Counted from the first letter of the stretch, positions 13,186 to 43,237 are shown. The stretch is DNA of 64,000 nucleotides from Iphione sp. A-MEVVRFRX5 (GCA_976226885.1 OZ320319.1:33666001-33730000); one strand, 5' to 3'. The notes: generated by a model from the letters alone, not told the origin. Numbers and translations: made by a program.

Positions 13186-14337
13186 TCAGTCACTTAGGCT
13201 GGAAATGCCGGTGAGGAAGTTCGTGTCGCTGTGCATGATGCCGCGGCACCGGTGGCAGCACAGGATGCGCGTGAAGGCGCGCCGGAAGGTTCGGTTGAAG
13301 AAATAGTAGAGGAAAGGGTTGATGGTCGAGTTGATGTAGCCAAGCCAGAGCACCATCTGCCAGGCGGTGAAAGGGATGCGGTAACCGATGATCGGGTCAA
13401 TGACGTTGAAGATGAAGAAAGGACACCAGCAGGTCGAGTAGGTGCCCATGATGATGGAGAGCGTCTTGGCCGCTTTCCGTTCGTGTCGCATGCTCTTCTC
13501 GCGCTTCTGCTCGCCCAGGGTGGTCATCTCCAGGCTGCGGATGCGCATGGCCTGCCGTGTGGCCTCCTGATAGATGCGCACGTTGACCATGAGCATGAAG
13601 AGAGTCGGCACGTAGAAGATGACCAGCGAGCCGATGAGAGCGAACGGGATGTTGACCAGGAACATGCACGCCTTGCCGTCGGGCGGCGTGTGGCATTTGA
13701 TGACGTCGTCGATGCCGATCTCGTTCCAGCCGTTGAAGATGGGGATCCAGGAGATGAAGACGGGAATGGTCCAGCAGCAGAAGATGAGAACAAACACCGT
13801 GCGCCGCGTCATGATTTGGTGGTAAAAGAACGGGCAGCAGATGGCGATGTAGCGATCCATGGCTAGGCAAGACAGGTGCAGGATCGACGTCGACGTCATC
13901 ATGACGTCGAGACAAGACGCCAGCTTGCAGACGATGCTGCCCAGCTCCCAGTGTAGGTTGACGTGTAGGTTGTAAATGCCGAACGGCATAACGAGCAGCG
14001 CCACGAAGATGTCCGCCACGGCCAGCGACAAGATAAAATAGTTAGTGAGCGTGCGCATCTGGCGGAACATGGACACTGAGCAGATTACGACAGAGTTGCC
14101 GAAGACGGTTAACAGTACAATGAGGCTCAGCACAAACACAATGGCCGACGATTCCCCAGGGGAGTAGTTTATGGGCGGCCCGCTGGCGGCCGCGTTGACT
14201 GCGCCGGACGAGTCTACCGACGCCGGGCAGGGAGCGCTTCCGTTGGCCACCACTTCGTCGGCGGCTGCGCTCGGTTTGTGGATGAGCGTATGACCCATGG
14301 CGGCTGCAACGACAGCTGCAGATTCTTTATAGCTCAT
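13186..14337 (-). CDS. HTR4: Class A aminergic GPCR, 5-HT4 serotonin receptor-like (383 aa, single coding exon)
   Basis: Seven hydrophobic segments, TM1 GN, TM2 LAVAD, TM3 Asp (CLDVMMTS), DRY, CWCPFF and NSTINPFLY. ECL2-TM5 (GWNEIGIDD...CMFLVNIPFA) and TM6-7 (KAAKTLSIIMG...DPIIGY...LWLGYINS...FRRAF..ILCC) closely follow vertebrate 5-HT4 as I recall it. Confidence 0.9.
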   Translation of the reverse strand: MSYKESAAVVAAAMGHTLIHKPSAAADEVVANGSAPCPASVDSSGAVNAAASGPPINYSPGESSAIVFVLSLIVLLTVFGNSVVICSVSMFRQMRTLTNYFILSLAVADIFVALLVMPFGIYNLHVNLHWELGSIVCKLASCLDVMMTSTSILHLSCLAMDRYIAICCPFFYHQIMTRRTVFVLIFCCWTIPVFISWIPIFNGWNEIGIDDVIKCHTPPDGKACMFLVNIPFALIGSLVIFYVPTLFMLMVNVRIYQEATRQAMRIRSLEMTTLGEQKREKSMRHERKAAKTLSIIMGTYSTCWCPFFIFNVIDPIIGYRIPFTAWQMVLWLGYINSTINPFLYYFFNRTFRRAFTRILCCHRCRGIMHSDTNFLTGISSLSD

Positions 14338-17300
14338 TGGAGCGAACGCGGAATGTCTGGAAATCGTTTGGTACCTGCGGGTATAGAACGAGAGAGTTCA
14401 TTTAACCAACTTAACCCTTCAAAGGTTTGTGACGCTAGGGAAGTCATATACTATTACCGCAGCTAAATGGCTAAAGGTCACATTTGGGATTATTCTTCTT
14501 TGAATTGAAAGTGCCCTAGCACATATGTGAAATCCTTGGACATTAGGCACTCAAGGCTCTCTCAGCACGTATCATTCCACAAAGGAATTGCCGGTCAATT
14601 AATATTTAATGCTTCGATTGAAGAAGAAAAGAATGATTGCTTTGGGGCTTTAAAGTTATACCGAAGAAAAGACAACTAAACCCCTCCGCATATAGACAAT
14701 CCATGCTTTGATCTGCAAATCCTACTCTTTCTGGAGCTAGAGCTGAGAACCAGTAAAGCAGATCAAATAATCTATTCTGTTCCCATGAGTTGCCTTGAAA
14801 CCGACTGGGACAATGTTGTTTACTCATTCCGTCTCTGAGCCGCTCACTTTATGGAGAAATATGTCTCGTTGGTAAAAATAACCTCTCGTTACGTCCAGTA
14901 GAGAACATCTCTCATTTCCATGTCTCTGAGCTATCCCGATCGATATCGCCTTTAACCTCTGAGGAGCATTTGCTCATTTGGGCATGCATTACAGTATGTC
15001 GTCACGCTCAAATTCAATTGTGTTTGTCTAGCCTTTAACTATTTTAATGATTTAAGAGCCTCTTTCTTGGCAGGAGACCTTTTGTATTGATACGAATACA
15101 GCCATGTGAGCTCGCACGGAAGCATGGATTAGGTATTTACGTACGGCCTGCAGCTCACAATTTACACCAGCCACTTTTTTTTATCTAAGACGGACGATGC
15201 CCACCTATAGCCTTTTCATCCGAAAAAAGCTATACATTCATATTCTGTTTCTCGAACTATAGAGATTATTTCTTCCGTTCTCAATCTTTTAAAGGACAAG
15301 AACCTTTGGTGAGCTATTCAGCAGGATGAGGTTGTGCACCTTGGTGTGCCGGTACCTGCAGCTCTGGGGGAGACGATTTTAGAACAAGCTCTCTATATTT
15401 AGGAGTTAATCTACAGACATAACAGTGTCTAAAACATTTTGGAATTTGAGGAAACGTGTCTTGTTCTTGATAGTTGAGCGAACAGTGTATTGATGTTAAG
15501 TATCTAAACTTTGACCCTTACACCTTTTCACCACTTTGTGTGTCCCTCCCGCCCCTTTCATTCGCGGAAAATATTTGACGTTAGGAAAGTCGCCGTGACT
15601 CTTAATGTCCTTACCGTGCTGTGTAGAAATCGTTGTAATAGCGACAGTCACCCGTCCGTAGTCCTTATCAAGTGGCTACTCCTGTGCACCGATTCTTCAA
15701 TGCGGTCGGCCAAAGTCTTGACTTAAGGAGTCGCGTGCTCCATCTCGCCAGCAGGCTTTGCGATCTGACTGCTTCTCTGTATCAGGATCCTGCGGGCGCC
15801 AATGCCACTCGCCGACTGCGGCTTGCACGCAGCGCTCCTAGTAGGCGGCATTTTGGCGCGTCGGCAACCAAAGTGTGCGCTCCCTATGGCGCCCCACCAA
15901 TCGTTCAGCCTTGCCGCTGCTGTTGCTGCTGCTACCAAAGCTGGCTTGTTCGCCTTTCTTGCCGCCAACAGCGCCAGCAAACCCCCGCCCGCCTTCCGCC
16001 AGCTCAACGGTCGCCACTTATGTAGCCGTTCCCGACAGATCCCAACTAGCACTCAGTGCTGGCAAGCTCACGCCGGACTCCAATTCGTCTCGTATGCAGC
16101 TGTCTGTGCACTCCTGTATGTTGCATTTCTGTACCTGTAATTAATATGATTTAAAAAATAAAACTCTTTGAAAGACGGACATCTGGCTACTGGTCTCTTG
16201 ATACTCATGATAAATGTTTCAAATGAGCAAGTGATGTGCAGCCCATACCTGGAATTGAAAGTTCTTTTTGTTCAAAGTTTCAAGGTCCGTAAGAGTTCCC
16301 GGTATTATAATGTGGTATCTTTATATTCAAGAAAGTTTTGATTAGATGACGTTCATCGTCTATGTGGTATCAATATCCGATACATACTGTTGTCAATTAA
16401 AGTTTGTTATTTGAGATATAAAATAATGTATCTATCCTTCAAAAGAATCTTTATTATTCTGTATTTTAGTTTTATATGTGTGGTCCTTTTCGACAGTTCT
16501 CTTGTTCGCAATTTCTCACGCAGAAATACACGCGTGTAGGGAATTAGTTTATGTTTACTGTTAATCTCCCGGAAGAGGTGAATCATAGTGACCTGAGAGA
16601 AAGATGTTCAGCTAATTGGGTTCACCTGCTGTAGACACCAGTCAACTGCATGGACTCCCTGAAAGAAGAATAAAAAAAGTGGATTGACATCTTGTTGAAG
16701 AAATCTTTTCACCGTTTCTATATCCGAAACAATTCTACGGTATGCCAAGCTCCTGTTCTTAAGCTACTGAGATAGTCATGGCATATTTTCTAATCCTTAC
16801 ATTTCACCGGATCAACGGGAAAGGTTTCACGTATACTTTTTTCATCAGCCCAATACCTTCGGGCCCAACTAATTTTCTTCGCTAAAACAATACATCACTC
16901 CGGAGATTATTTCTCATTCCGGAAAAATTTATGAATGGCATATTGTTCCTTTAAATGAAACAATTTATCAATAAGACAATAGACCTACATATCAAGTGAC
17001 AGCGACAAACTATCAGGAAAATCCTTTATTAAAGCCACACACCTATTTTCAGTTATTCGCCCTTTAGATGCCATTTCATGAAGGACTAACGATAAAACGA
17101 CAATCTTAAACTTGATTTACATATCACACAAATATAGAAAAAAGAGAGTGTAGTCAGTCAAATACACATTATAGCTTAGCTGAGTTATACTAATTATAGG
17201 TACACTTCAACACAAAAATAGAATAATCTTCTGGTTCCTTTACATATTCTGCCGAATATACCACATTGGGATCGTATCGGTTCTTACAAGGCTGCAAGTA

Positions 17301-19466: not shown

Positions 19467-19557
19467 AGTAGTGTATGAAGGTAACTGCCCTAGACCCCCT
19501 TTAGTGCAAAAAGGTTATTTGGGTGCAAACCACTTGAGTTTCCCTGAACCACTTGAG
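19467..19557 (+). repeat. Left terminal inverted repeat
   Basis: The first 49 nt are the exact reverse complement of 43189-43237, and 71 nt match with 3 mismatches. It then continues GTTTCCCTGAACCACTTGAG, matching the right end after a 63-bp offset. Confidence 0.93.
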
Positions 19558-21965: not shown

Positions 21966-23135
21966 ATGGAGACCATATCCGAGCGAGTTCGTGTATGCGA
22001 TGGAGGAGTGCATCTCCATCTGGAAATTCGTAGAATAGGGAAAGCGACTCGTCATCTATCAGTCCGACGCGAGGTCTTTGACACTGCCGGCAATGGATGG
22101 GAGACTCTTCTTTGTGGTCACGTTCTCACTGTTCAACCTGAAGAAAAGACCTACCACATTGAGCTTGCTGACTTTGCCAGCAGGACATATGTGTGCTTTG
22201 AACGGATCGACGAAGCAGCACAAAGAATAAAGTAAGTCTCTTTTCCTCAAATATATTAACTCTTTAACCATAAAGTTGGTTTGTGAACTCCCTGCTTAAC
22301 AATTTTTATATATAAATGTCTGTCATTCAATCCATTCCGATTTTGTAATTGAATGTTTCCATGTAATAAAAAAAAATCGAATATTATATCCATGTGTATT
22401 GTCTCTTTTTCCCCCAGCTACGACTGCTTCAATCTCCTGATCTACGAAGTCGAAGGAATATTGGATTATATGAAGAGGAATCCAATAGACTCGAGCAATT
22501 CATTCCTTGCTCTGGCCGAACGAGAGCGTGAGCGGACCAAGAAGGATGTTGGTTTTCCTTTGCTAAGGAGAACATACAATATGGTGAGACCAAAAGCAGA
22601 TGGCAGCCAATTCACCCGTCGGGCCGAGAACATCTTCATCAATCAGCTGATCTGTGAAGACACCGCCCAAAAAGAACTCATCGACGGGGAGAATATCGAG
22701 TACGTTCCCTTTCCTGCCAATACCATTTCAATGCATGAAGTCATCCAGAAGACGTATGTGTTTCTTCTTGCCACCGAATATCACAACTTGTTGAAAGCAA
22801 GAGGACTTGCCGACCTGGAGACTGATGATGGAGGCTCGCCCTGTCGTATCCCTGAGCATGCCCGTTCTGATGTGATGCATGCCGCCCACATCCGCATCAG
22901 CTTCCAATGACTAGTGGAGACCAGCCAGATGATGATCAATCTTCTGGAGTTGAGTAACGAGGTGAACCATTCACCTCCTACGATTGAATGCTTGAGAGAC
23001 TTCAATGAGAAAGACCATGCTAGTAAAGTCGATCGCATTCTCTGTGGACGTGTCATTAAGAATGGGGAGCTTGACACAGAGCACTACCACATGTATCATT
23101 TCGAGTACGAGTTTTGCTTGTTGGCTCAGATATGA
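21966..23135 (+). CDS. Polinton accessory protein B, two exons (21966-22231, 22418-22910), with possible readthrough to 23135
   Basis: TATA GTATATAAGA at 21912 and ATG in context GACATGG. The intron 22232-22417 (GTAAGT...CTTTTTCCCCCAG) joins ORFs 21939-22235 and 22353-22910 in frame, giving 252 aa. The same frame continues past TGA to 23135 (327 aa). Confidence 0.75.
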
Positions 23136-23587
23136 TAACCTTTTTTTTGTTTGATGCAGCCCGTTAAAGAAAATCTTAGTAATACTTAAATTTGTTTTGC
23201 TATGAGAAGTATGTATTATTATTAGAAGTAGAAGTAATAGCAATATGTTCTAGTTGACATATGTAAATCTATTGATTACATTGAGATTTGTCCATCCCGT
23301 ATAATAGAGTACTAAGACTTTGGTATATAATAAAGGGAAATCACATCATGTAACAATAGGATATGGTAATAAAAAAAATCTTTTTATTAAAACCGAACTG
23401 GTCACCTTTTTCTTTTTTACTTAAAAAAACACCAACTCAATCACGACTACAGTGTCCATCACATTCACTTCTAGAATACAGATGGAAATATGAAGTAATC
23501 ATCACCCGTTTGGTATAGTATAATTACATGATAGCAAACATGAATACTGTTACTACAGTCAAAGTGTCACTGAAAAGAAAAAAAAAA

Positions 23588-23946
23588 ACATAGCCGACAC
23601 TTAATCATCTCCTTCCTGTGTAGTATAATACGTGTCGCTATAACATCTTTAAATAGATCATATTCTCCAAAAAACGTATACAAAATGAAATGATCTATTA
23701 CATACTATAAAAAAAAATCATCACCTGGATGTAGTTTCTTGTATTTGGTTATATATATATATATAGAGAGAGAACATAGACGACATATAATCAGCACCTG
23801 CCTGTGTAGTAAAATCTTTGCCGCTATAACATCCTTAAATAGATCATCATATCCAACAAAGTACAAAATATGATGTTATCTAATATATAATATACCAAAC
23901 CATCACCTGGATGTAGTTTTCTTTCTGTGTTTTGATATATATATAT
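23588..23946. repeat. Diverged tandem duplication, period about 182-186 bp
   Basis: GCTATAACATC(T/C)TTAAATAGATCAT at 23637 and 23823; CATCACCTGGATGTAGTTT at 23719 and 23901; a partial third copy AATCAGCACCTG near 24021. Confidence 0.8.
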
Positions 23947-34158: not shown

Positions 34159-37100
34159 TCATAACTCCATCTCTCTCGCGCGTTCTCTGTCACGAAGCTC
34201 CTCCCACAGCTGCCCTAGACGATTCTCTCCCCTGAATTCCGAGGGTGAGGATATCTTAGCAAGAGCCGGCGTCATTCCCACCCCCCAGAAACGATCCGAG
34301 TCGGCAAAGACTATACGTCGATCGTGATCCAGTTCTCTCTTCGCTTCCGCCACCCTGTTCAATTTCAGTGTCAGAACTTGTCTCATCGTGTCCTCTCTCC
34401 CGATATGTCTCCACCTTTCACTCAGATCCACAAAGTCGGCATAGGCTCTCATTTCTGTGTGATCTCGAGTGAGATGAATGGCTCTGGCTTCTTCTTCCGC
34501 ATTGTGAAATCTAGCCAATTCGTAAAGGAACATGTGCTCTGAGGAGATGAACCCTAGCCCCATATCGCAAACGTAATGCGGACCGAGTACGTCTCTTGTC
34601 CCGACACCGAATACGTAATTGTCGACGTCGTCACTCCACGGACACAGGGTGATGGAGAGGGGGGTGGTGTGTATGCCATCATCGTGAACCACTCGTTTGG
34701 CATAGAAATACGAGAATCCCGTCCTTTCCTGCTTGTAGGTGAAGACGGTGTCGTCGACGGCGCGCATCCCCATATTGACTCCAATGCGTGACTTTTGGGT
34801 GCTGAGAACCGAGCGGTAGATTTCCATGAGTTGGACGAGACGAGATTTGGAAATGCCTTTACAGCTCAGCTTGTAGTTGTCTGTAGACGTCTCCAGAATG
34901 TAGGTTTTGCTGTTGAGGGCAACGATCCCTTCTCCTCGAGCCTCCTCTTTCATGATGCCTGGTACCCGTCTGTCGTACGTCTGGTGCTGTGGACAGCACT
35001 CGCGCATGAACCAGACGGGCTTGGTAGAATCACTGCAATTGCCTAACACTTCGTCCAGATAGAGTTTTCTCTTCTCCTCGGACATGGCTTCGGGTAGATT
35101 GGAGGACGACAGAGCTAGATAGGCACTGTCCGTGTCCATGGTAACGTATTCGAAATGGTCCCTGTCGATCAGTTTATCGATGCAATCGTAATAGAAACCC
35201 AACATCGTTAATTTGGCATATTGAAGGATGAAGAAACCCAAATAGATCGGAAGGTCTAGGACGATGCGGGGCTTGGCTGCTTGGATTTCGTAGAATCCTT
35301 TGTACTCCACCATCTTCCTGAAAGAAGGAGAGTTGACAGCTAACGATGCCTCGCACTTGTCGGAGAAATAATTGATGGCAGTCTGCTTCTCCTTCTGCAT
35401 GATGATGCCACCATATGCAGAATTACCCAGGAGTTTCATGGTGTCTGCTATGACTGCCATGTCGGGGTTGGCATCGCCTCGTCTACGGGCTGCCGTGATT
35501 TCTTGTTCAAAGTCACTGAAACAGGTGGACGAGTTGAATTCGATCACCTGGTAGACGTTAGTCACCCTCAATCCATGCTCCAGGTACCATTTCAGGAGTG
35601 GGGTGGCGATGAGGGTTTTCTTAGCCCTCATTGCCCCTACCAAAAGCTGACGAGGACGTTCCGACAACTCGAACTGAGCCACGTGTCTTTGCATGTGTGA
35701 ACCGATATCACAGGTACGAACGCTAGCTTTGCCAAAGAGAGGGGACATCTCTTCGAAATAACTCCATGGCGGGAGACTCTTCTCTTTTCCCTCACTCCAG
35801 GCTTCTGGAACTTCTATGTCCACTTCGACTGCTCCGAAAAGGTCACCTTTTTCTACAGCTCTAAGGATTTCCTGCCCACTTATCTTACCATATCGAACTC
35901 TGGAGAACGGGGGGAGAAGAATGTCTCTGGCTATGCTCTGCAATTCCTCTTTGCCGTCCATGATTTTTCTGAAAGAACACTCTGTCATCGTGACTACCCT
36001 ATAGTCCATCCACTCCAGAAAAGTTTTCTTCTGTTCCGTTCTCTTCTGTCGCTTTCTTCTGTCCTGTTCGTTCATTTTCCCCTTCATGCAACGATGACCG
36101 TGAAAGAAGCAACCGTTGAATTCGAATACCGTGCCACGGCTTGGGTTGTTTCCTTTCCCAGCAGTAGAGGGAGACATGAATCCGTCGACCTGATACGGTC
36201 CGATGCGTAACTCACCTCCGTCTCGGTTCTTGGCGTGATGAATGGTTTTCTTCCTTCTTCGCGACTCCCATTCCAACCACACGAACATGGTCTGGTACGT
36301 AGAGAATTTCTCGACCACAAAGCCATACTCCTGCCTTCGTCGTGTGAAGTTGCCCATCGGCATCTCTTTGGCTATGGCCGAGAGATATAGACTGTTGGCA
36401 TCGAGTCCCAGAATGGACTTGCAGGGTGACAATCCATCTCGAATGAGAGTCTTGTCCTTCTCGTGATATCTGGTGAAGACGATGGCTGGACCACCCACCA
36501 GATTACTCTTGAAGGTCTTGTATATATCTTCCTGAGAACCATTGAACAAGGGAAACACGGTTCCCTTAGAGGAGGCAGACTGGAACAGCATTCGTCGAGC
36601 CATGCCCGGAGCAGATACGGATATTTTGAACAAGTCGAAACCCCGCTGGAAATAGAAAGCCTGCAACTTTTCCACTGCCTCGACGAACGGGAGCACGTCT
36701 AGGTTGTTATAATAAATCAGAAGGTCTGCCAGACACTGCATGTTCTCTTTCCTCCATACTTCTTGGAGGCTTTCGTAATCAGCGATGGAAATGTTACTTC
36801 CTTTCAAGCTAGAGTAGAATGCCTCGTGTGGAGGAAGCTCTGTCTCCTTCAACTTCTCGGGGCAGTCAAGGTACTCGTAGCAGAAGAAACTCTTTTCTTG
36901 AGAAGCACCGTACGCCTTAAGAAAGCGAGCATAGGACACACCAGGCGACAGATACTGACATATGTCCAGGAACTTGAAGCGTACAGTGGAAATGGAGATG
37001 TACGTGTTCTCTCGCTTGATCACAAATGAACCTGGTTCGTCCACCTGGAGGGCTCTCAAGAGTTCCCCCTTCAGTAAGTTCAGGTCGTAGCGGGCAGAAT

Positions 37101-39641
37101 TGAAACCCAAGACGGGTAGCGAACTCATGTAGGCATAGAACCTACCTTGTATTTTTTCTACCGTCTTCTTATACTTCAGGGCAGGGTGGGTCCGATCCCC
37201 CTCCTGGCGCTGACCACCTCTGTCATCTTCATCATCGGCATCATCATCATCGTTAGCACCACCAGCAGCATTGGCAGCATCATCGTTGCCGGCAGCATCC
37301 GCATCATCGTCGACATTCTCTTCGTCCTCACGATGCAAGACGAAATCGACCAGTTCGTCGTCTTCGACGACATGATCTTGAACGGGTGCATCTCCCAACT
37401 GTCTCGTTATTTTGTCGTTTGTCTCCTGCAGTAGTTCCTCCAGTTGACTGACCACGTCGCCCCATTTTCGTTTTGCTCTCTCTAGAGCTTCTTCCTGAAT
37501 AGATTCCAGGTATTCGAGCATCTGATTAACTAGCGTTTTCATGTCTTCGTGTAGGAAACACTGAGGATTTGTGAAACCAGGTACGTTGCTGCACACGGAG
37601 ACTGAGATGGTCTCGTGTCGATGAATCCACGTCACACTAGGGGTGTCTCTTTCTCCATCGAGTCTTCTGAGAATAGCCTCACAGTCAAATACGGCGAAAT
37701 CTTCATAAGTCCGTTCCTCAGGGGAAACGACTATTCCCAGTCCTTCCAGATCATCGAATATGGTGGAAGGACTGTTGTAGTATCCCCCTCGGTACACATA
37801 ACGTGTTCTCAGGGGACATACTTTGGAGTGCCTCGCAAAGTGATGTCTCTTGCCGAAACATCGTCGACAGAGACGGCACTGAAACTTCTTGGCGTATGTC
37901 TCGAAGTCATTGACATAAGAGAGGTGACCTGCATGAAGGTTAAGGTGCATAATGTCAGGAAAACGAGAGAAAGGTTTCCTAATGACGGATATGCTTCCAT
38001 TCATCTTCAATTCGTATACATAGATGCCGACTTGGAAACATTCCTCAAAGAGAGTCAAGTCGCGCAGGTCCACACCCCTAGATTTACTGGGGTCGGGAGG
38101 TAGTGTGCGGTTTCCTAGACTTGATTGGAACTGACGCCATGACAAATAGTACTCTTTCACGGCTCCTTCTACGTCGTTTTCTTGATGGTGTACTGCGAGA
38201 CACCTAAAGGCGCAAAGAGCATCGTTATGATCATCTAATGAAGTGATACATCGTTTATTTCGCACAAACTCGGGAAGGAAACCTCGACCCATCAGATACG
38301 TGGTGCGCGTAATGAAAAATACGACATTGGTTATCATGGCTACCTGCCACTTAGTGTCTGGTCGGTTCCGGGTGAAGTAATTCTCCGGGTCCACTGCCCT
38401 TATGGTGTCCATTACCTCAGACAGGTCACTTGCCCGGGAAACCACTATGGGTTCGTTAAATACCATACTGTTACTATAGGGGATGAAATAACGATATTCA
38501 CCCGTCTGAACATTACGCAATATCATACCGAACGACATATTCACCTTGAAGGTATGGTCTTCTCTTTCGAAAATGGTCTCCAAGAATTGGTGAAGTTCCT
38601 GGGGACCACGTGACAGATCGTTGGTGGGGAAATTGTAATCGGTGGTGATTTCTCTATCTGTATGGTGGGCCAGGATGTGGCGCTGATTGGCTCTATATAC
38701 CCTTTCCAGTTCTGGCTCTATGGTCTCCCCTTCCCTGTTGCACCAGGGTGGATGCTGATTGTTCTCGCTTGGGGTCTTGTCCCTTTTTCTTTTTTTACTT
38801 TTGTCCTTCTTTCCTCGCTCACCATCCTTCCACGGTTCGACCTGGAGGGGTATACCCTCTTCATGGAGTGTGGTTCCATTCCCTCCGCCCCCGTGTTGGA
38901 TTCCTCGATGTAGATACAACTCGCGCTTATTCTCGAACGAATCTCCACATTTTCTACATCGCCATTCTAATCGGTGTGAGTGACTTAGAAGATGCCTTCG
39001 CATAAGTGAAGCTTTCTTAAAAGACCGGGTACACTTAGAGCACTTGTATTGCTGACAGCTTTCTTTGTGTCGCCTGGCATTGCCTTGACGCTTAAATTTC
39101 TTCAAGCACTTCTCACATTGCCTTTGTTTTACAACCTGTATTTAAAAAACAATCGAAGTAAGTTATCTTCATGGTACTTTGTTTTCTTATAGGAACTTCA
39201 TACGACGAGTATATGACAAAAAACAGATTGCAGTATGCTGGCTCGCAGTAAACAGGTAAGGAAACACAAATACACAGGTTTTTTACTTACTTCTTCTATC
39301 TCGTCAGATGAGGGTGATGATGACAGGGAATATAGACTCTGCATTTCTTCTCTTGGAAGTACTCTCACCAATCCTTCTTCTGGCTGTTTATTTTTCACAT
39401 AGAGAGAGAGAGAGAGACAGAACAAAATAGGATAACTGACTGCATCCAAACATGCACACACTCTCACGCGTATGGAAATTGATACATTTTCTATCATTAT
39501 TTCAGTCGAACAGCTCATTCAACTCACTGGTCGGCGACTTGGCCCCGGAATAGACTCATATCGGACAGATGCTACATCGGACGACACTGCAACTGATGCT
39601 GGAGGAGAAGTTGTGGTTGTTCTTGCTGGTGGTGGTGCTGC

Positions 39642-39673
<32 letters not shown>

Positions 39674-40210
39674 AATGTTGGGTGATTTCATCAGCCGTAC
39701 GATCATCTTGAGAAGTCTATACAAGGAATACATGTACATGATGTGATGCACAAATCCAAAGATTAGAAAACTCAGTTCTACTAAACCATACCAAAGAAAA
39801 AAAAAAAAAAAAAAAACTTTACTTACGTCTTGATCAGTCTTCGAATGAAAACTAACATCCTGTTTGCTTGGTGTGAAGACATTATCCGAGGAATGAGATT
39901 GCTGGGTTTGTGAAGGCATGGATGTTGGTAGCAATAAATTATTCAATAGATCCACCTGCAATGATTTGTGAATTATATAAATGTATATACAGTATAGTAA
40001 TCAATTGTTAAATTATCCATTAGTACAGTAGAACGTTTTTTGGGGACTTACCTCACTACTGTTCAAATGATTGCTTCTTAATTCATTTTGTCTCTCCAAT
40101 ACGATGGGATTATTCATCAATCCCTTCGCTGCAGCCCATGAGATGAGTTCCTCCTCGGATGAGAAAGAAGCTACAAGTCTCCTCAATAGGTCAACTGCAG
40201 CTTGAGCCAT
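34159..40210 (-). CDS. POLB: Protein-primed DNA polymerase B polyprotein, five exons (40210-40052, 39955-39827, 39716-39528, 39383-39291, 39135-34159), about 1848 aa
   Basis: ExoI VFDCE, ExoII FNSARYD, ExoIII YNNLDV; Pol motifs DANSLY, KLLGNSAYG and MDTDS. All four introns are GT(A/G)AGT...AG and phase 0. Also three N-terminal zinc fingers, an OTU-like Cys/His pair, a Vsr-like insert and a NADAR-like C-terminus. An in-frame ATG at 40222 would give 1852 aa. Confidence 0.92.
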
Positions 40211-40246
40211 GGTGGAGAACATTAAGTTAGCTATTGATAGTACACC

Positions 40247-40252
40247 TTTATA
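40247..40252 (-). promoter_or_regulatory. TATA box of the spliced PolB gene
   Basis: Minus-strand GTATATAAAG, about 37 nt before ACCATGG at 40210. Confidence 0.6.
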
Positions 40253-40562
40253 TACCTAGCCTGTATCATGAATATGTTAATAATAATGCTGACATCACTG
40301 TCACATAATGTGATCACATGTCCGTGATGTGGTGCAATAATTGAAAAGAAAAAAGGTCAAATTGAAATGCTAAATGTTTATTCGATGATTGTGATCAGAT
40401 TCATGAATAAGAGTTACATATTTAAAATAAACAAAAAATTCATTAAAGGAATTAATGGTTCATTTACTATCTTCCAAAAACAACCTAAAAAATATATCCC
40501 AGGTCGCTTCAAGGGCAAATACAGTCGAGGACGAGGATAATCTCTGAGATGTCTCAATATGT

Positions 40563-41647
40563 TTAGTTACAGTGGCAGGCAGCGCTATCATCCTTTGTCT
40601 GTCAAAAAAGAAATATAAAAAAAATAATTTCATTATTGCTTTCAAATTTGTCACTGAAGATTATCATAATTCAACAACAAAGAAATTAATATAATACACT
40701 AATTTCTCTTCTAGTCGTTGCATTTTTTTTATATTCATTTAACATCTTACCTTGTCTTTTTTCTTCTCATTCTCTCTCTCCAATTTGTCAATAACTCGAT
40801 CCACTTGTGCCTCTGTCATCCCATACCAGTCGCAGTAGTTTTGGGATTGTCCTTCCTGACCGAAGTTCTTCACCTGACCTTGGTTGTTTTTTAGAATGTT
40901 TTCACTTAGAAAAACCTTCAATGTCGAAGGGAGAGGGAGCCGTTGGATCTTTTCGTGGGTCCTTTTCTTCAGGTTGGAGTCTTCCACCAGACGAACCAGA
41001 TGAGAAGGGGAAAATACAGAATGATCATTGATTTCATCATCATCATCATCATCATCGGCATCTCTAACATCTCCTTCCATCAGATTCGCATCACCATTCC
41101 TATTAGTTTCTTGGATAACTGCTACGAAATCACCCATTTGTTCATATATGGCATGTTCATCGGTATCTTCGAGCACACCGTCTTCGTTTTCGATCATAAA
41201 CTCGATGGTGGGTTTGGATAGACTGTGCCATATGCTTCCTACGACTGCATTACCCGCTTGAGTTAGTAAACTGAGTTTGCCGTCAAACAGGATGCTCCTC
41301 AAAGCAAGCATGCTGGACTTGAACAGACGATACACCTCCAATGGACGACGTTTCAGTTCATATATCTCGTCAGTAATCACCATTGCATGATCAGAAAGAT
41401 CCATCACACATAAAGCACAGAGAGAATCACCCCGTTTCACCACTTGACGTCCCATTGGGGCGGGTCCGAGTATGTCCTTCATATGTACTTCGTTCTTTTC
41501 CCAATTCCAGTAATAGTCACTCATGTATAATACTACTGGACGATGTACTTCGTTCTTTTCGTGAATATATAGTTCAGGAAAATGCCGATTCCCATGCAGA
41601 TGTGGATCATAAGAACGAATTATGTATTTGCCAGCTATATCCATCAT
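40563..41647 (-). CDS. Polinton accessory SOCS-box protein (41647-40751, probable second exon 40598-40563)
   Basis: 302-aa ORF containing FSPSHLVRL...KIQRLPLPSTLKVFL after an acidic tract. Donor AAG/GTAAGA at 40750 and acceptor TTTTTTGACAG at 40599 would replace VRC* with TKDDSAACHCN*. Confidence 0.75.
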
Positions 41648-42953: not shown

Positions 42954-43080
42954 GCGGGAAATTTGAAATTATATCTTATCTCTACCTACTTATCTTTCAT
43001 AAGGGCGGGAAATTTGAAATGATATCTTATCTCAAGTAGAGGATCCATGCGCGGGAAATTTGAAATAATCTCTCTTATCT
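42954..43080. promoter_or_regulatory. Three E2F/CDE-CHR composite motifs interleaved with GATA motifs
   Basis: GCGGGAAATTTGAA at 42954, 43005 and 43051; CTTATCT at 42975, 42989, 43026 and 43074. Confidence 0.6.
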
Positions 43081-43083
43081 TTT

Positions 43084-43237
43084 CTCAAGTGGTTCAAGGA
43101 AACTCAAGTGGTTTATGACGATCTCAAGTACCTCTGTACTGACTTGACCTTCTCGAAAATCGAACTTCAAGTGGTTTGCACTCAGATGACCTTTTTGCAC
43201 TAAAGGGGGTCTAGGGCAGTTACCTTCATACACTACT
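43084..43237 (-). repeat. Right terminal inverted repeat
   Basis: Reverse complement of the left terminus; carries three TCAAGTGGTT copies (43085, 43104, 43167). Confidence 0.93.

Follow-up and report, generated by a model that had tools for sequence, protein, structure and literature searches.

The closest described systems to the element analysed here are Polintons (Mavericks) and adintoviruses, which, in the accessible text of PMC8097293 and PMC8502044, likewise have AGTAGT-ended repeats, a 6-bp target duplication, an rve integrase with a chromodomain and a PolB bearing an OTU domain, together with an ATPase and a protease for which the element has candidate genes. PMC8097293 (accessible text) describes the genes of intact vertebrate elements as intronless and regards a short N-terminal fragment set apart by a long 'intron' as a potential false positive; Polinton genes are generally annotated as unspliced open reading frames (ORFs). 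The Polinton polymerase pPolB has been assigned the order terminal protein (TP)–vOTU–PolB in 10.1101/2024.03.18.585575, the accessible part of which contains no occurrence of 'intron', 'splic' or 'zinc'. In dinoflagellates, maverick-polinton-like elements contain introner-derived introns, mostly described as recent post-integration insertions (PMC11957031, accessible text).

Here, we describe a 23.8-kb Polinton/Maverick at positions 19467–43237 of a 64,000-nt stretch of the Iphione sp. A-MEVVRFRX5 genome (the window), in which the polB gene very likely starts with four small spliced exons. Unlike the vertebrate Mavericks of PMC8097293, as its accessible text presents them, this lineage is predicted to have three to four conserved polB introns, spliced accessory genes and one gene that encloses the core module. 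As in dinoflagellates, introns lie inside polinton-like elements; in contrast to those insertions, a spliced leader is common to about 21 families in this genome, with exon-1 peptides down to 37% identical. Our overall reading, which we judge likely, is that polB is routinely spliced to encode a PolB of 1848 aa and that intron 4 is kept for an antisense exon that ends a membrane protein encoded 10.3 kb away. Among nuclear DNA viruses, the adenovirus E2B pTP/Pol mRNAs and baculovirus ie0 are similar in that an upstream exon encodes the first residues of a replication or early protein, the adenoviral leader giving only a few codons; here the leader would comprise 190 aa in four exons and interlock with an antisense gene.

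The predicted antisense nesting of the core genes is, to judge from the sequence, what is new here, and it bears on what keeps integrated Polintons silent or lets them become active. Spliced polB was not seen in the accessible parts of PMC8502044, PMC10748475, PMC12220804 and PMC11071296. In the literature searched, outside Repbase, Kapitonov and Jurka 2006 and the supplements of papers such as PMC8502044, no account of splicing in a Polinton polB leader was found, and no paper on antisense nesting in Polintons.

A Polinton/Maverick in the Iphione genome

The length of the element falls within the 12.7–24.6 kb reported for Polintons/Mavericks and adintoviruses (PMC8097293 and PMC8502044, accessible text), and its terminal inverted repeats of 76 nt each, with (AGT)2 ends and a 6-bp target-site duplication (Table 1), agree with the structural definition of a Polinton/Maverick in the accessible text of PMC8097293. 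Exonuclease and polymerase motifs, a weak phrog_1907 match and a TP–vOTU N terminus identify a family B polymerase of the protein-primed type. As in adintoviruses, PolB has an N-terminal OTU domain in the predicted structure; PF03175 (pfam03175), which is matched by the PolB of Alpha adintoviruses, the Beta type being divergent, is absent from the Pfam matches of the window. Intronless core genes, a trait that is descriptive for vertebrate elements and lies outside the structural definition, are not found, four introns being predicted in polB. The order of the ATPase and protease genes is kept across families. The probable capsid gene, the candidate for the double jelly-roll major capsid protein of Polintons, adjoins the protease gene and encodes 446 aa, 54–97% identical among families with a full-length match; profile searches and a PDB sequence search returned no match to it.

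Table 1 Features of the element, in window coordinates
Feature	Position	Strand	Remarks
Left terminal inverted repeat, AGTAGT end	19467..19542	.	6-bp target duplication ATTTAC outside
Membrane-protein gene exon 1	27667..28641	+	phase-0 donor GTGAGT
Membrane-protein gene exon 2	28816..28902	+	29 aa, open end at phase-0 donor GTATGA overlapping protease stop
Adenain-like protease gene	28898..29395	-	PF00770 E 0.0028, under curated cut-off
Predicted intron, 10,290 nt, core genes in antisense (inferred)	28903..39192	+	
Probable major capsid protein gene	29376..30716	-	size, position, conservation
rve integrase with chromodomain	31475..32632	-	Pfam, both domains over curated cut-off
A32-like packaging ATPase gene	33483..34118	-	Pfam E 0.0077, under curated cut-off
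polB exon 5	34159..39135	-	three zinc fingers, basic stretch, TP-like domain, vOTU, exonuclease/polymerase, NADAR
polB intron 4	39136..39290	-	phase 0; contains antisense micro-exon
Antisense micro-exon	39193..39255	+	acceptor, ELHTTSI, stop 39214-39216, donor GTAAGG at 39256
polB exon 4	39291..39383	-	31 aa, SLYSL motif
polB intron 3	39384..39527	-	phase 0, weak acceptor; candidate opposite-strand acceptor inside (exon start 39506)
polB exon 3	39528..39716	-	63 aa, low complexity, PGPS motif at end
polB intron 2	39717..39826	-	phase 0; lost by in-frame deletion in sister subfamily
polB exon 2	39827..39955	-	43 aa; pN < pS
polB intron 1	39956..40051	-	phase 0
polB exon 1, coding part	40052..40210	-	53 aa, predicted three-helix domain
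polB TATA box	40247..40254	-	TATA-like word <=70 nt from ATG in 14/19 representatives
Right terminal inverted repeat	43162..43237	.	93% complementary to left copy

A probable spliced leader for polB

The long minus-strand frame at 39141–34159, in which Pfam recognizes a C2H2 finger near the start and NADAR at the end, has no early ATG, as the initial annotation pointed out: exon 5 reaches its first Met only at residue 45, within the second zinc finger. The four introns proposed upstream lie where they had been placed, with lengths of 96, 110, 144 and 155 nt, donors GTAAGT, GTAAGT, GTGAGT and GTAAGT, and acceptors CAG, TAG, CAG and CAG. Their removal joins exons of 159, 129, 189 and 93 nt in frame and without a stop into 190 codons, all in phase 0, back to ACCATGG at 40213–40207 below the TATA box TATATAAA at 40254–40247. 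Exon 5 adds 1658 aa to a predicted PolB polyprotein of 1848 aa. One element of the original proposal fails, namely that the last acceptor completes zinc finger 1; this C2HC finger (residues 7–27) lies entirely within exon 5 and was simply missed by an ATG-based call.

A genome search returned many copies of the element, from which 30 loci were taken and 5 removed as overlaps. Conservation of the splice sites among siblings, named at the outset as a check, holds for all eight sites in 16/16 near siblings. Intron lengths in these copies vary freely and exon lengths shift by multiples of 3, except in one damaged copy, the changes in exon 3 counting for little because they are located in a trinucleotide repeat. 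Distant families are stronger evidence for the predicted splicing than near siblings. Four phase-0 introns occur at matching places in two families with 66% exon-1 peptide identity, and the exon-1 peptide was matched in 150/150 scored candidates (342 were found in the genome) at 37–100% identity. Among 45 divergent loci examined, every one closes exon 1 with Glu and then GT, and 43 have PolB 451–1335 nt downstream of exon 1, one of the misses being a wrong flank examined.

A phase-free search for exon chains recovered a chain in 44/54 loci from 21 families, with 139/140 introns in phase 0. The real chain beat all 20 shuffles in 19/21 representatives, and at least three introns were chained in 4/420 shuffles; this control is uninformative on phase, as the end introns are fixed and 45/55 shuffled donors were also in phase 0. 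Exon 4 was passed over in the window, because the intron-3 acceptor scores poorly, and in the subfamily of the window as well; the call of this exon is based on homology with families in which the search did pick it. Substitution patterns point to coding sequence, with pS of 0.55–0.95 against pN of 0.15–0.44 for exon 1 (17 distant pairs) and pN about half of pS for exon 2 (two pairs). The ATG and peptide of exon 1 are conserved, whereas the first Met of the last exon wanders between residues 1 and 198 across 19 representatives, and an annotation built on ORFs would, as had been argued, miss the spliced 190-aa leader of PolB. GT–AG ends, consensus donors, frame preservation and conservation are what is expected of U2-type introns, and we hold routine splicing of polB to be highly probable.

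The PolB tree separates two clades, with interior support in clade 1 too weak for counting losses of intron 2. In a sister subfamily (L020–L023 and L026) this intron is gone through an in-frame deletion that removed about 11 codons and fused exons 2 and 3.

The leader and the N terminus of PolB

Splicing would give PolB an N terminus of 190 aa, which includes a domain unmatched in Pfam. Exon 1 is modelled as three helices (pLDDT 90). A structure search gave nothing clear for this fold (best Z 5.8, among helical bundles), Foldseek, run on viral and PDB libraries, gave none at E <= 0.001, and no Pfam family was significant. A profile of exon 1 run against 1.84 billion representatives matched 62 proteins, most with two or three tandem copies of the domain and often with CxxC pairs following; P0019 and P0049 among them are repeat artefacts. 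In two matches, P0020 and P0031, a single predicted protein joins the exon-1 domain to zinc finger and TP regions that are 31–32% identical to exon 5 (E 3e-95 and 3e-39, respectively), the homology of P0020 extending through the vOTU. Their DNA was not recovered, so that their status as single open frames depends on the database gene call: metagenome contigs gave no locus for P0020, viral contigs none for polB, and the ESM Atlas no usable match for the P0020 repeats. The likeness of the P0015 N terminus to exon 1 (E 0.11) was too weak to retain.

These matches bear on whether exon 1 could be a separate small gene, with the leader never spliced to polB and polB starting at an internal Met. Many of the database proteins with the exon-1 domain are indeed short and without PolB, and a word search for longer proteins with an exon-1 alignment, a weak search by the tool's own note, found none; yet exon 1 always ends in Glu followed by GT, with an unconserved read-through of 2–117 aa, the internal Met is not conserved and the domain is fused to the N terminus of PolB in P0020 and P0031. 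We regard such a separate gene as very improbable.

Several other matches have arrangements of their own. In P0027 and P0054 the exon-1 domain stands ahead of an endonuclease/exonuclease/phosphatase domain, which suggests its capture by retroelements. P0030, a 75-aa protein from another assembly, has MAQA at its start and a match that closes with EEV; this repeats the pattern of Glu then GT read-through and hints at the same intron in another genome. P0010, an annotated mollusc PolB homologue, has 11 AGPS motifs among its zinc fingers, mostly in a 12-residue tandem repeat.

Exons 2–4 are variable and rich in Ser, Thr, Pro and acidic residues. The motifs [PA]G[PST]S and S[VLI]YS[LI] occur in 12/19 and 11/19 representatives, respectively, as counted over three frames with no null. 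The PGPS of the leader resembles the motif bound by the USP7 TRAF pocket, P/A/E-x-x-S in a flexible region with AGPS and PGPS among the examples (PMC6203733, accessible text), a likeness that we offer as a lead only.

For residues 126–425 of exon 5 (model pLDDT 67), the top 20 rows of a structure search are OTU proteases (best Z 9.4, rmsd 4.2, 113 aligned). The first domain of the model weakly matches Rev1 residues 621–738 (Z 4.3, rmsd 3.6, 94 aligned), presumably the little-finger/PAD region. As modelled, the N-terminal region of exon 5 fits the TP–vOTU layout of 10.1101/2024.03.18.585575 (accessible text), with a TP-like alpha/beta domain followed by a vOTU fold and its Cys and His motifs; it differs by a predicted spliced three-helix domain, a flexible linker and three zinc fingers ahead of the TP, and by NADAR after the polymerase.

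Intron 4 contains a probable conserved antisense exon

The initial annotation saw a possible replication switch in the retention of intron 4 and noted that uniform phase 0 would let any exon be skipped; on this reading, regulated retention or skipping would yield short or variant proteins, kept by selection, that switch replication off or on. Parts of its basis stand: retention of intron 4 does bring an in-frame stop after 30 aa, and the uniform phase 0 is real, so that skipping would keep the frame. The acceptor of intron 3 is weak, exon 4 escaped the chain search both in the window and across its subfamily, and GC replaces GT at donor 3 in one sibling. Neither a selected short protein nor the skipping itself is borne out, however. 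The read-through of intron 4 varies from 2 to 39 aa with no common sequence in 18 representatives (a 19th, with 60 aa, has a 'last intron' that includes a skipped exon), AATAAA occurs in the last intron of only 2/19 representatives, and the sister subfamily has simply lost intron 2. Uniform phase says little on regulated skipping, as the families share ancestry and free observations are limited to the middle introns. Without a conserved read-through or polyadenylation word the switch is unsupported, and the conserved sequence inside intron 4 is accounted for by an exon on the opposite strand; we consider regulated retention or skipping quite improbable.

This opposite-strand exon takes the form of a motif shared by last introns, namely an acceptor, seven codons and a stop on the strand opposite polB. 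Scanning for an acceptor with 4–14 aa ending in [ST]x[VIL]-stop detected it in 20/22 family representatives, in 0/22 sense strands and in 167/2200 shuffles. With a looser pattern, a tail is found in all 17 clade-1 representatives, one with an extra Cys and one with six residues. The 15 seven-residue tails of clade 1, rows that were selected by the motif pattern, use 8 codons for Ser/Thr at P-2, all 4 Thr codons at P-3 and all 4 codons for the terminal Val, and stop with TGA (7), TAA (7) or TAG (1). This variety of synonymous codons and the use of all three stops point to selection on the peptide, on the strand opposite polB, and we hold it to be highly probable that the micro-exon is coding. 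The extra terminal Cys, in the family of L031 and L032, breaks the motif. In clade 2, a 14-aa tail overlaps sense exon 3 and ends in ES[ST]V in 5/6 loci among those listed, L071 being a variant.

The micro-exon stop lies 39 nt ahead of the strong donor at 39256, within the distance usually spared by nonsense-mediated decay. A further antisense acceptor is found 10–60 nt inside the penultimate polB intron in 11/15 clade-1 representatives, as against 0/15 inside intron 1, so that the mature antisense RNA would probably overlap donor 3 and exon 3. All evidence for the antisense nesting comes from one genome. The ELHTTSI end fits a putative class I PDZ-binding motif, defined in the accessible text of 10.1101/2022.12.31.522388 as C-terminal X-S/T-X-hydrophobic and present there in viral proteins such as HPV16 E6. 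Unlike the E6 tail, the motif here would be a micro-exon of its own inside the intron of another gene.

A membrane-protein gene and a predicted 10.3-kb intron

The likely partner of the micro-exon is the plus-strand gene at 27667–28902, which appears to encode a type I membrane protein. By eye, its exon 1 specifies a hydrophobic N terminus, a Cys-rich head, a Thr/Ser-rich stalk, a hydrophobic segment and a basic stop-transfer; searches with the head found no homologue or family. Among 20 downstream loci taken, 18 had a protease match, and exon 2 has the same open phase-0 GT end in 16 of these (14 by script, 2 by eye), with other sequence in 2. Read-through past the exon-2 donor looks conserved in two clade-2 loci, which makes the exon end less certain. 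The span from this donor to the micro-exon measures about 9.8–10.8 kb in 14 other loci.

By a crude splice model, the acceptor of the micro-exon ranks 8th of the 604 AGs in the span, and the seven that outscore it leave room for another route, in which polB splicing is real and the micro-exon coding, but the latter is reached through intermediate exons or from another plus-strand transcript, with no single 10.3-kb intron. One of these competitors, at 30227, is partly conserved, with AG in 8/9 families and at least 3 bits in 6/9; none keeps its AG in all 9. Antisense AATAAA words within the span, one in the window and 0–10 in 14 other loci, could end the membrane-gene transcript early. A chance PDZ-like tail, unshared, is present within the span in 9/14 other loci. 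On the other side, the second exon of the membrane gene lacks a conserved stop and its donor is in the phase required by the micro-exon, and a PDZ-type end is suited to the tail of a membrane protein. We find the indirect route rather unlikely and a direct join of the membrane gene to the micro-exon, as the sequence suggests it, quite likely.

Two copies, L078 (of the L032 family) and the L022 locus, are internally deleted, with the integrase, capsid and protease genes absent; they appear to place the membrane gene close to polB, with the micro-exon still present. Minus-strand AATAAA words at 28729 and 28801, downstream of the protease gene, fall within the first intron of the plus-strand membrane gene and so form a further interlock.

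A model of interlocked strands

We propose that the host spliceosome would routinely remove the four introns to give the 1848-aa polyprotein, in which the leader would supply a three-helix domain and a flexible linker with host-binding motifs. Should the vOTU cleave at its own boundary with the TP, a cut that has been proposed for Polintons, the terminal protein at the ends of the genome would retain the leader and zinc fingers. On the plus strand, a transcript from 27667 would run in antisense over the protease, capsid, integrase, ATPase and polB genes, spanning them with a single intron, gain its PDZ-binding-type tail in intron 4 and then probably run to the acceptor just inside intron 3, its untranslated end overlapping polB exon 3. 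The polB and membrane-gene transcripts would thus be convergent and complementary, and any on/off control of polB would come from their overlap, not from a selected short PolB isoform.

The two strands of the element being interlocked in this way, one transcript is predicted to be antisense over all core genes. If this is true, the membrane protein could be made only by a transcript that crosses every core gene backwards and overlaps the spliced leader of polB. The conserved seven-codon exon on its opposite strand is the likely reason for the persistence of intron 4, and it may explain why at least the last polB intron survives in a compact virus-like genome. More speculatively, a lineage of animal Polintons may nest its whole replication and virion module antisense in one 10-kb intron of a membrane-protein gene, with the overlap acting as a latency switch that separates quiet integration from replication, an idea that we regard as unlikely. 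The model specifies two exact sets of junctions, four on the minus strand and that from 28902 to 39193 on the plus strand. It also carries a warning that Polinton proteomes built from ORFs may be truncated at both ends.

Accessory genes, repeats and surroundings

An accessory plus-strand gene (21966–22231 and 22418 onward) has a 186-nt phase-2 intron, likewise in L029, so the introns of the element are not all in phase 0. The gene upstream of polB (41647–40751, minus strand) has a phase-0 GT shortly before its stop and a weak SOCS-box match; a strong acceptor at 40598 would add 11 aa to it. A second membrane-type gene (26997–25036, minus strand), with hydrophobic ends and a Ser/Thr-rich middle, diverges from the first, is kept across families and appears to be spliced to a Pro-rich exon. 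The left accessory region contains two copies of a unit of about 185 nt (23587–23946). Near the right terminal repeat, a 29-nt repeat is present three times (42954–43079), each copy starting with GCGGGAAATTTGAAAT, which we take to resemble an E2F site joined to a CHR element; these repeats may link the element to the cell cycle. A host reading frame of the rhodopsin-family GPCR type lies at 13186–14397 on the minus strand, 5 kb left of the insertion.
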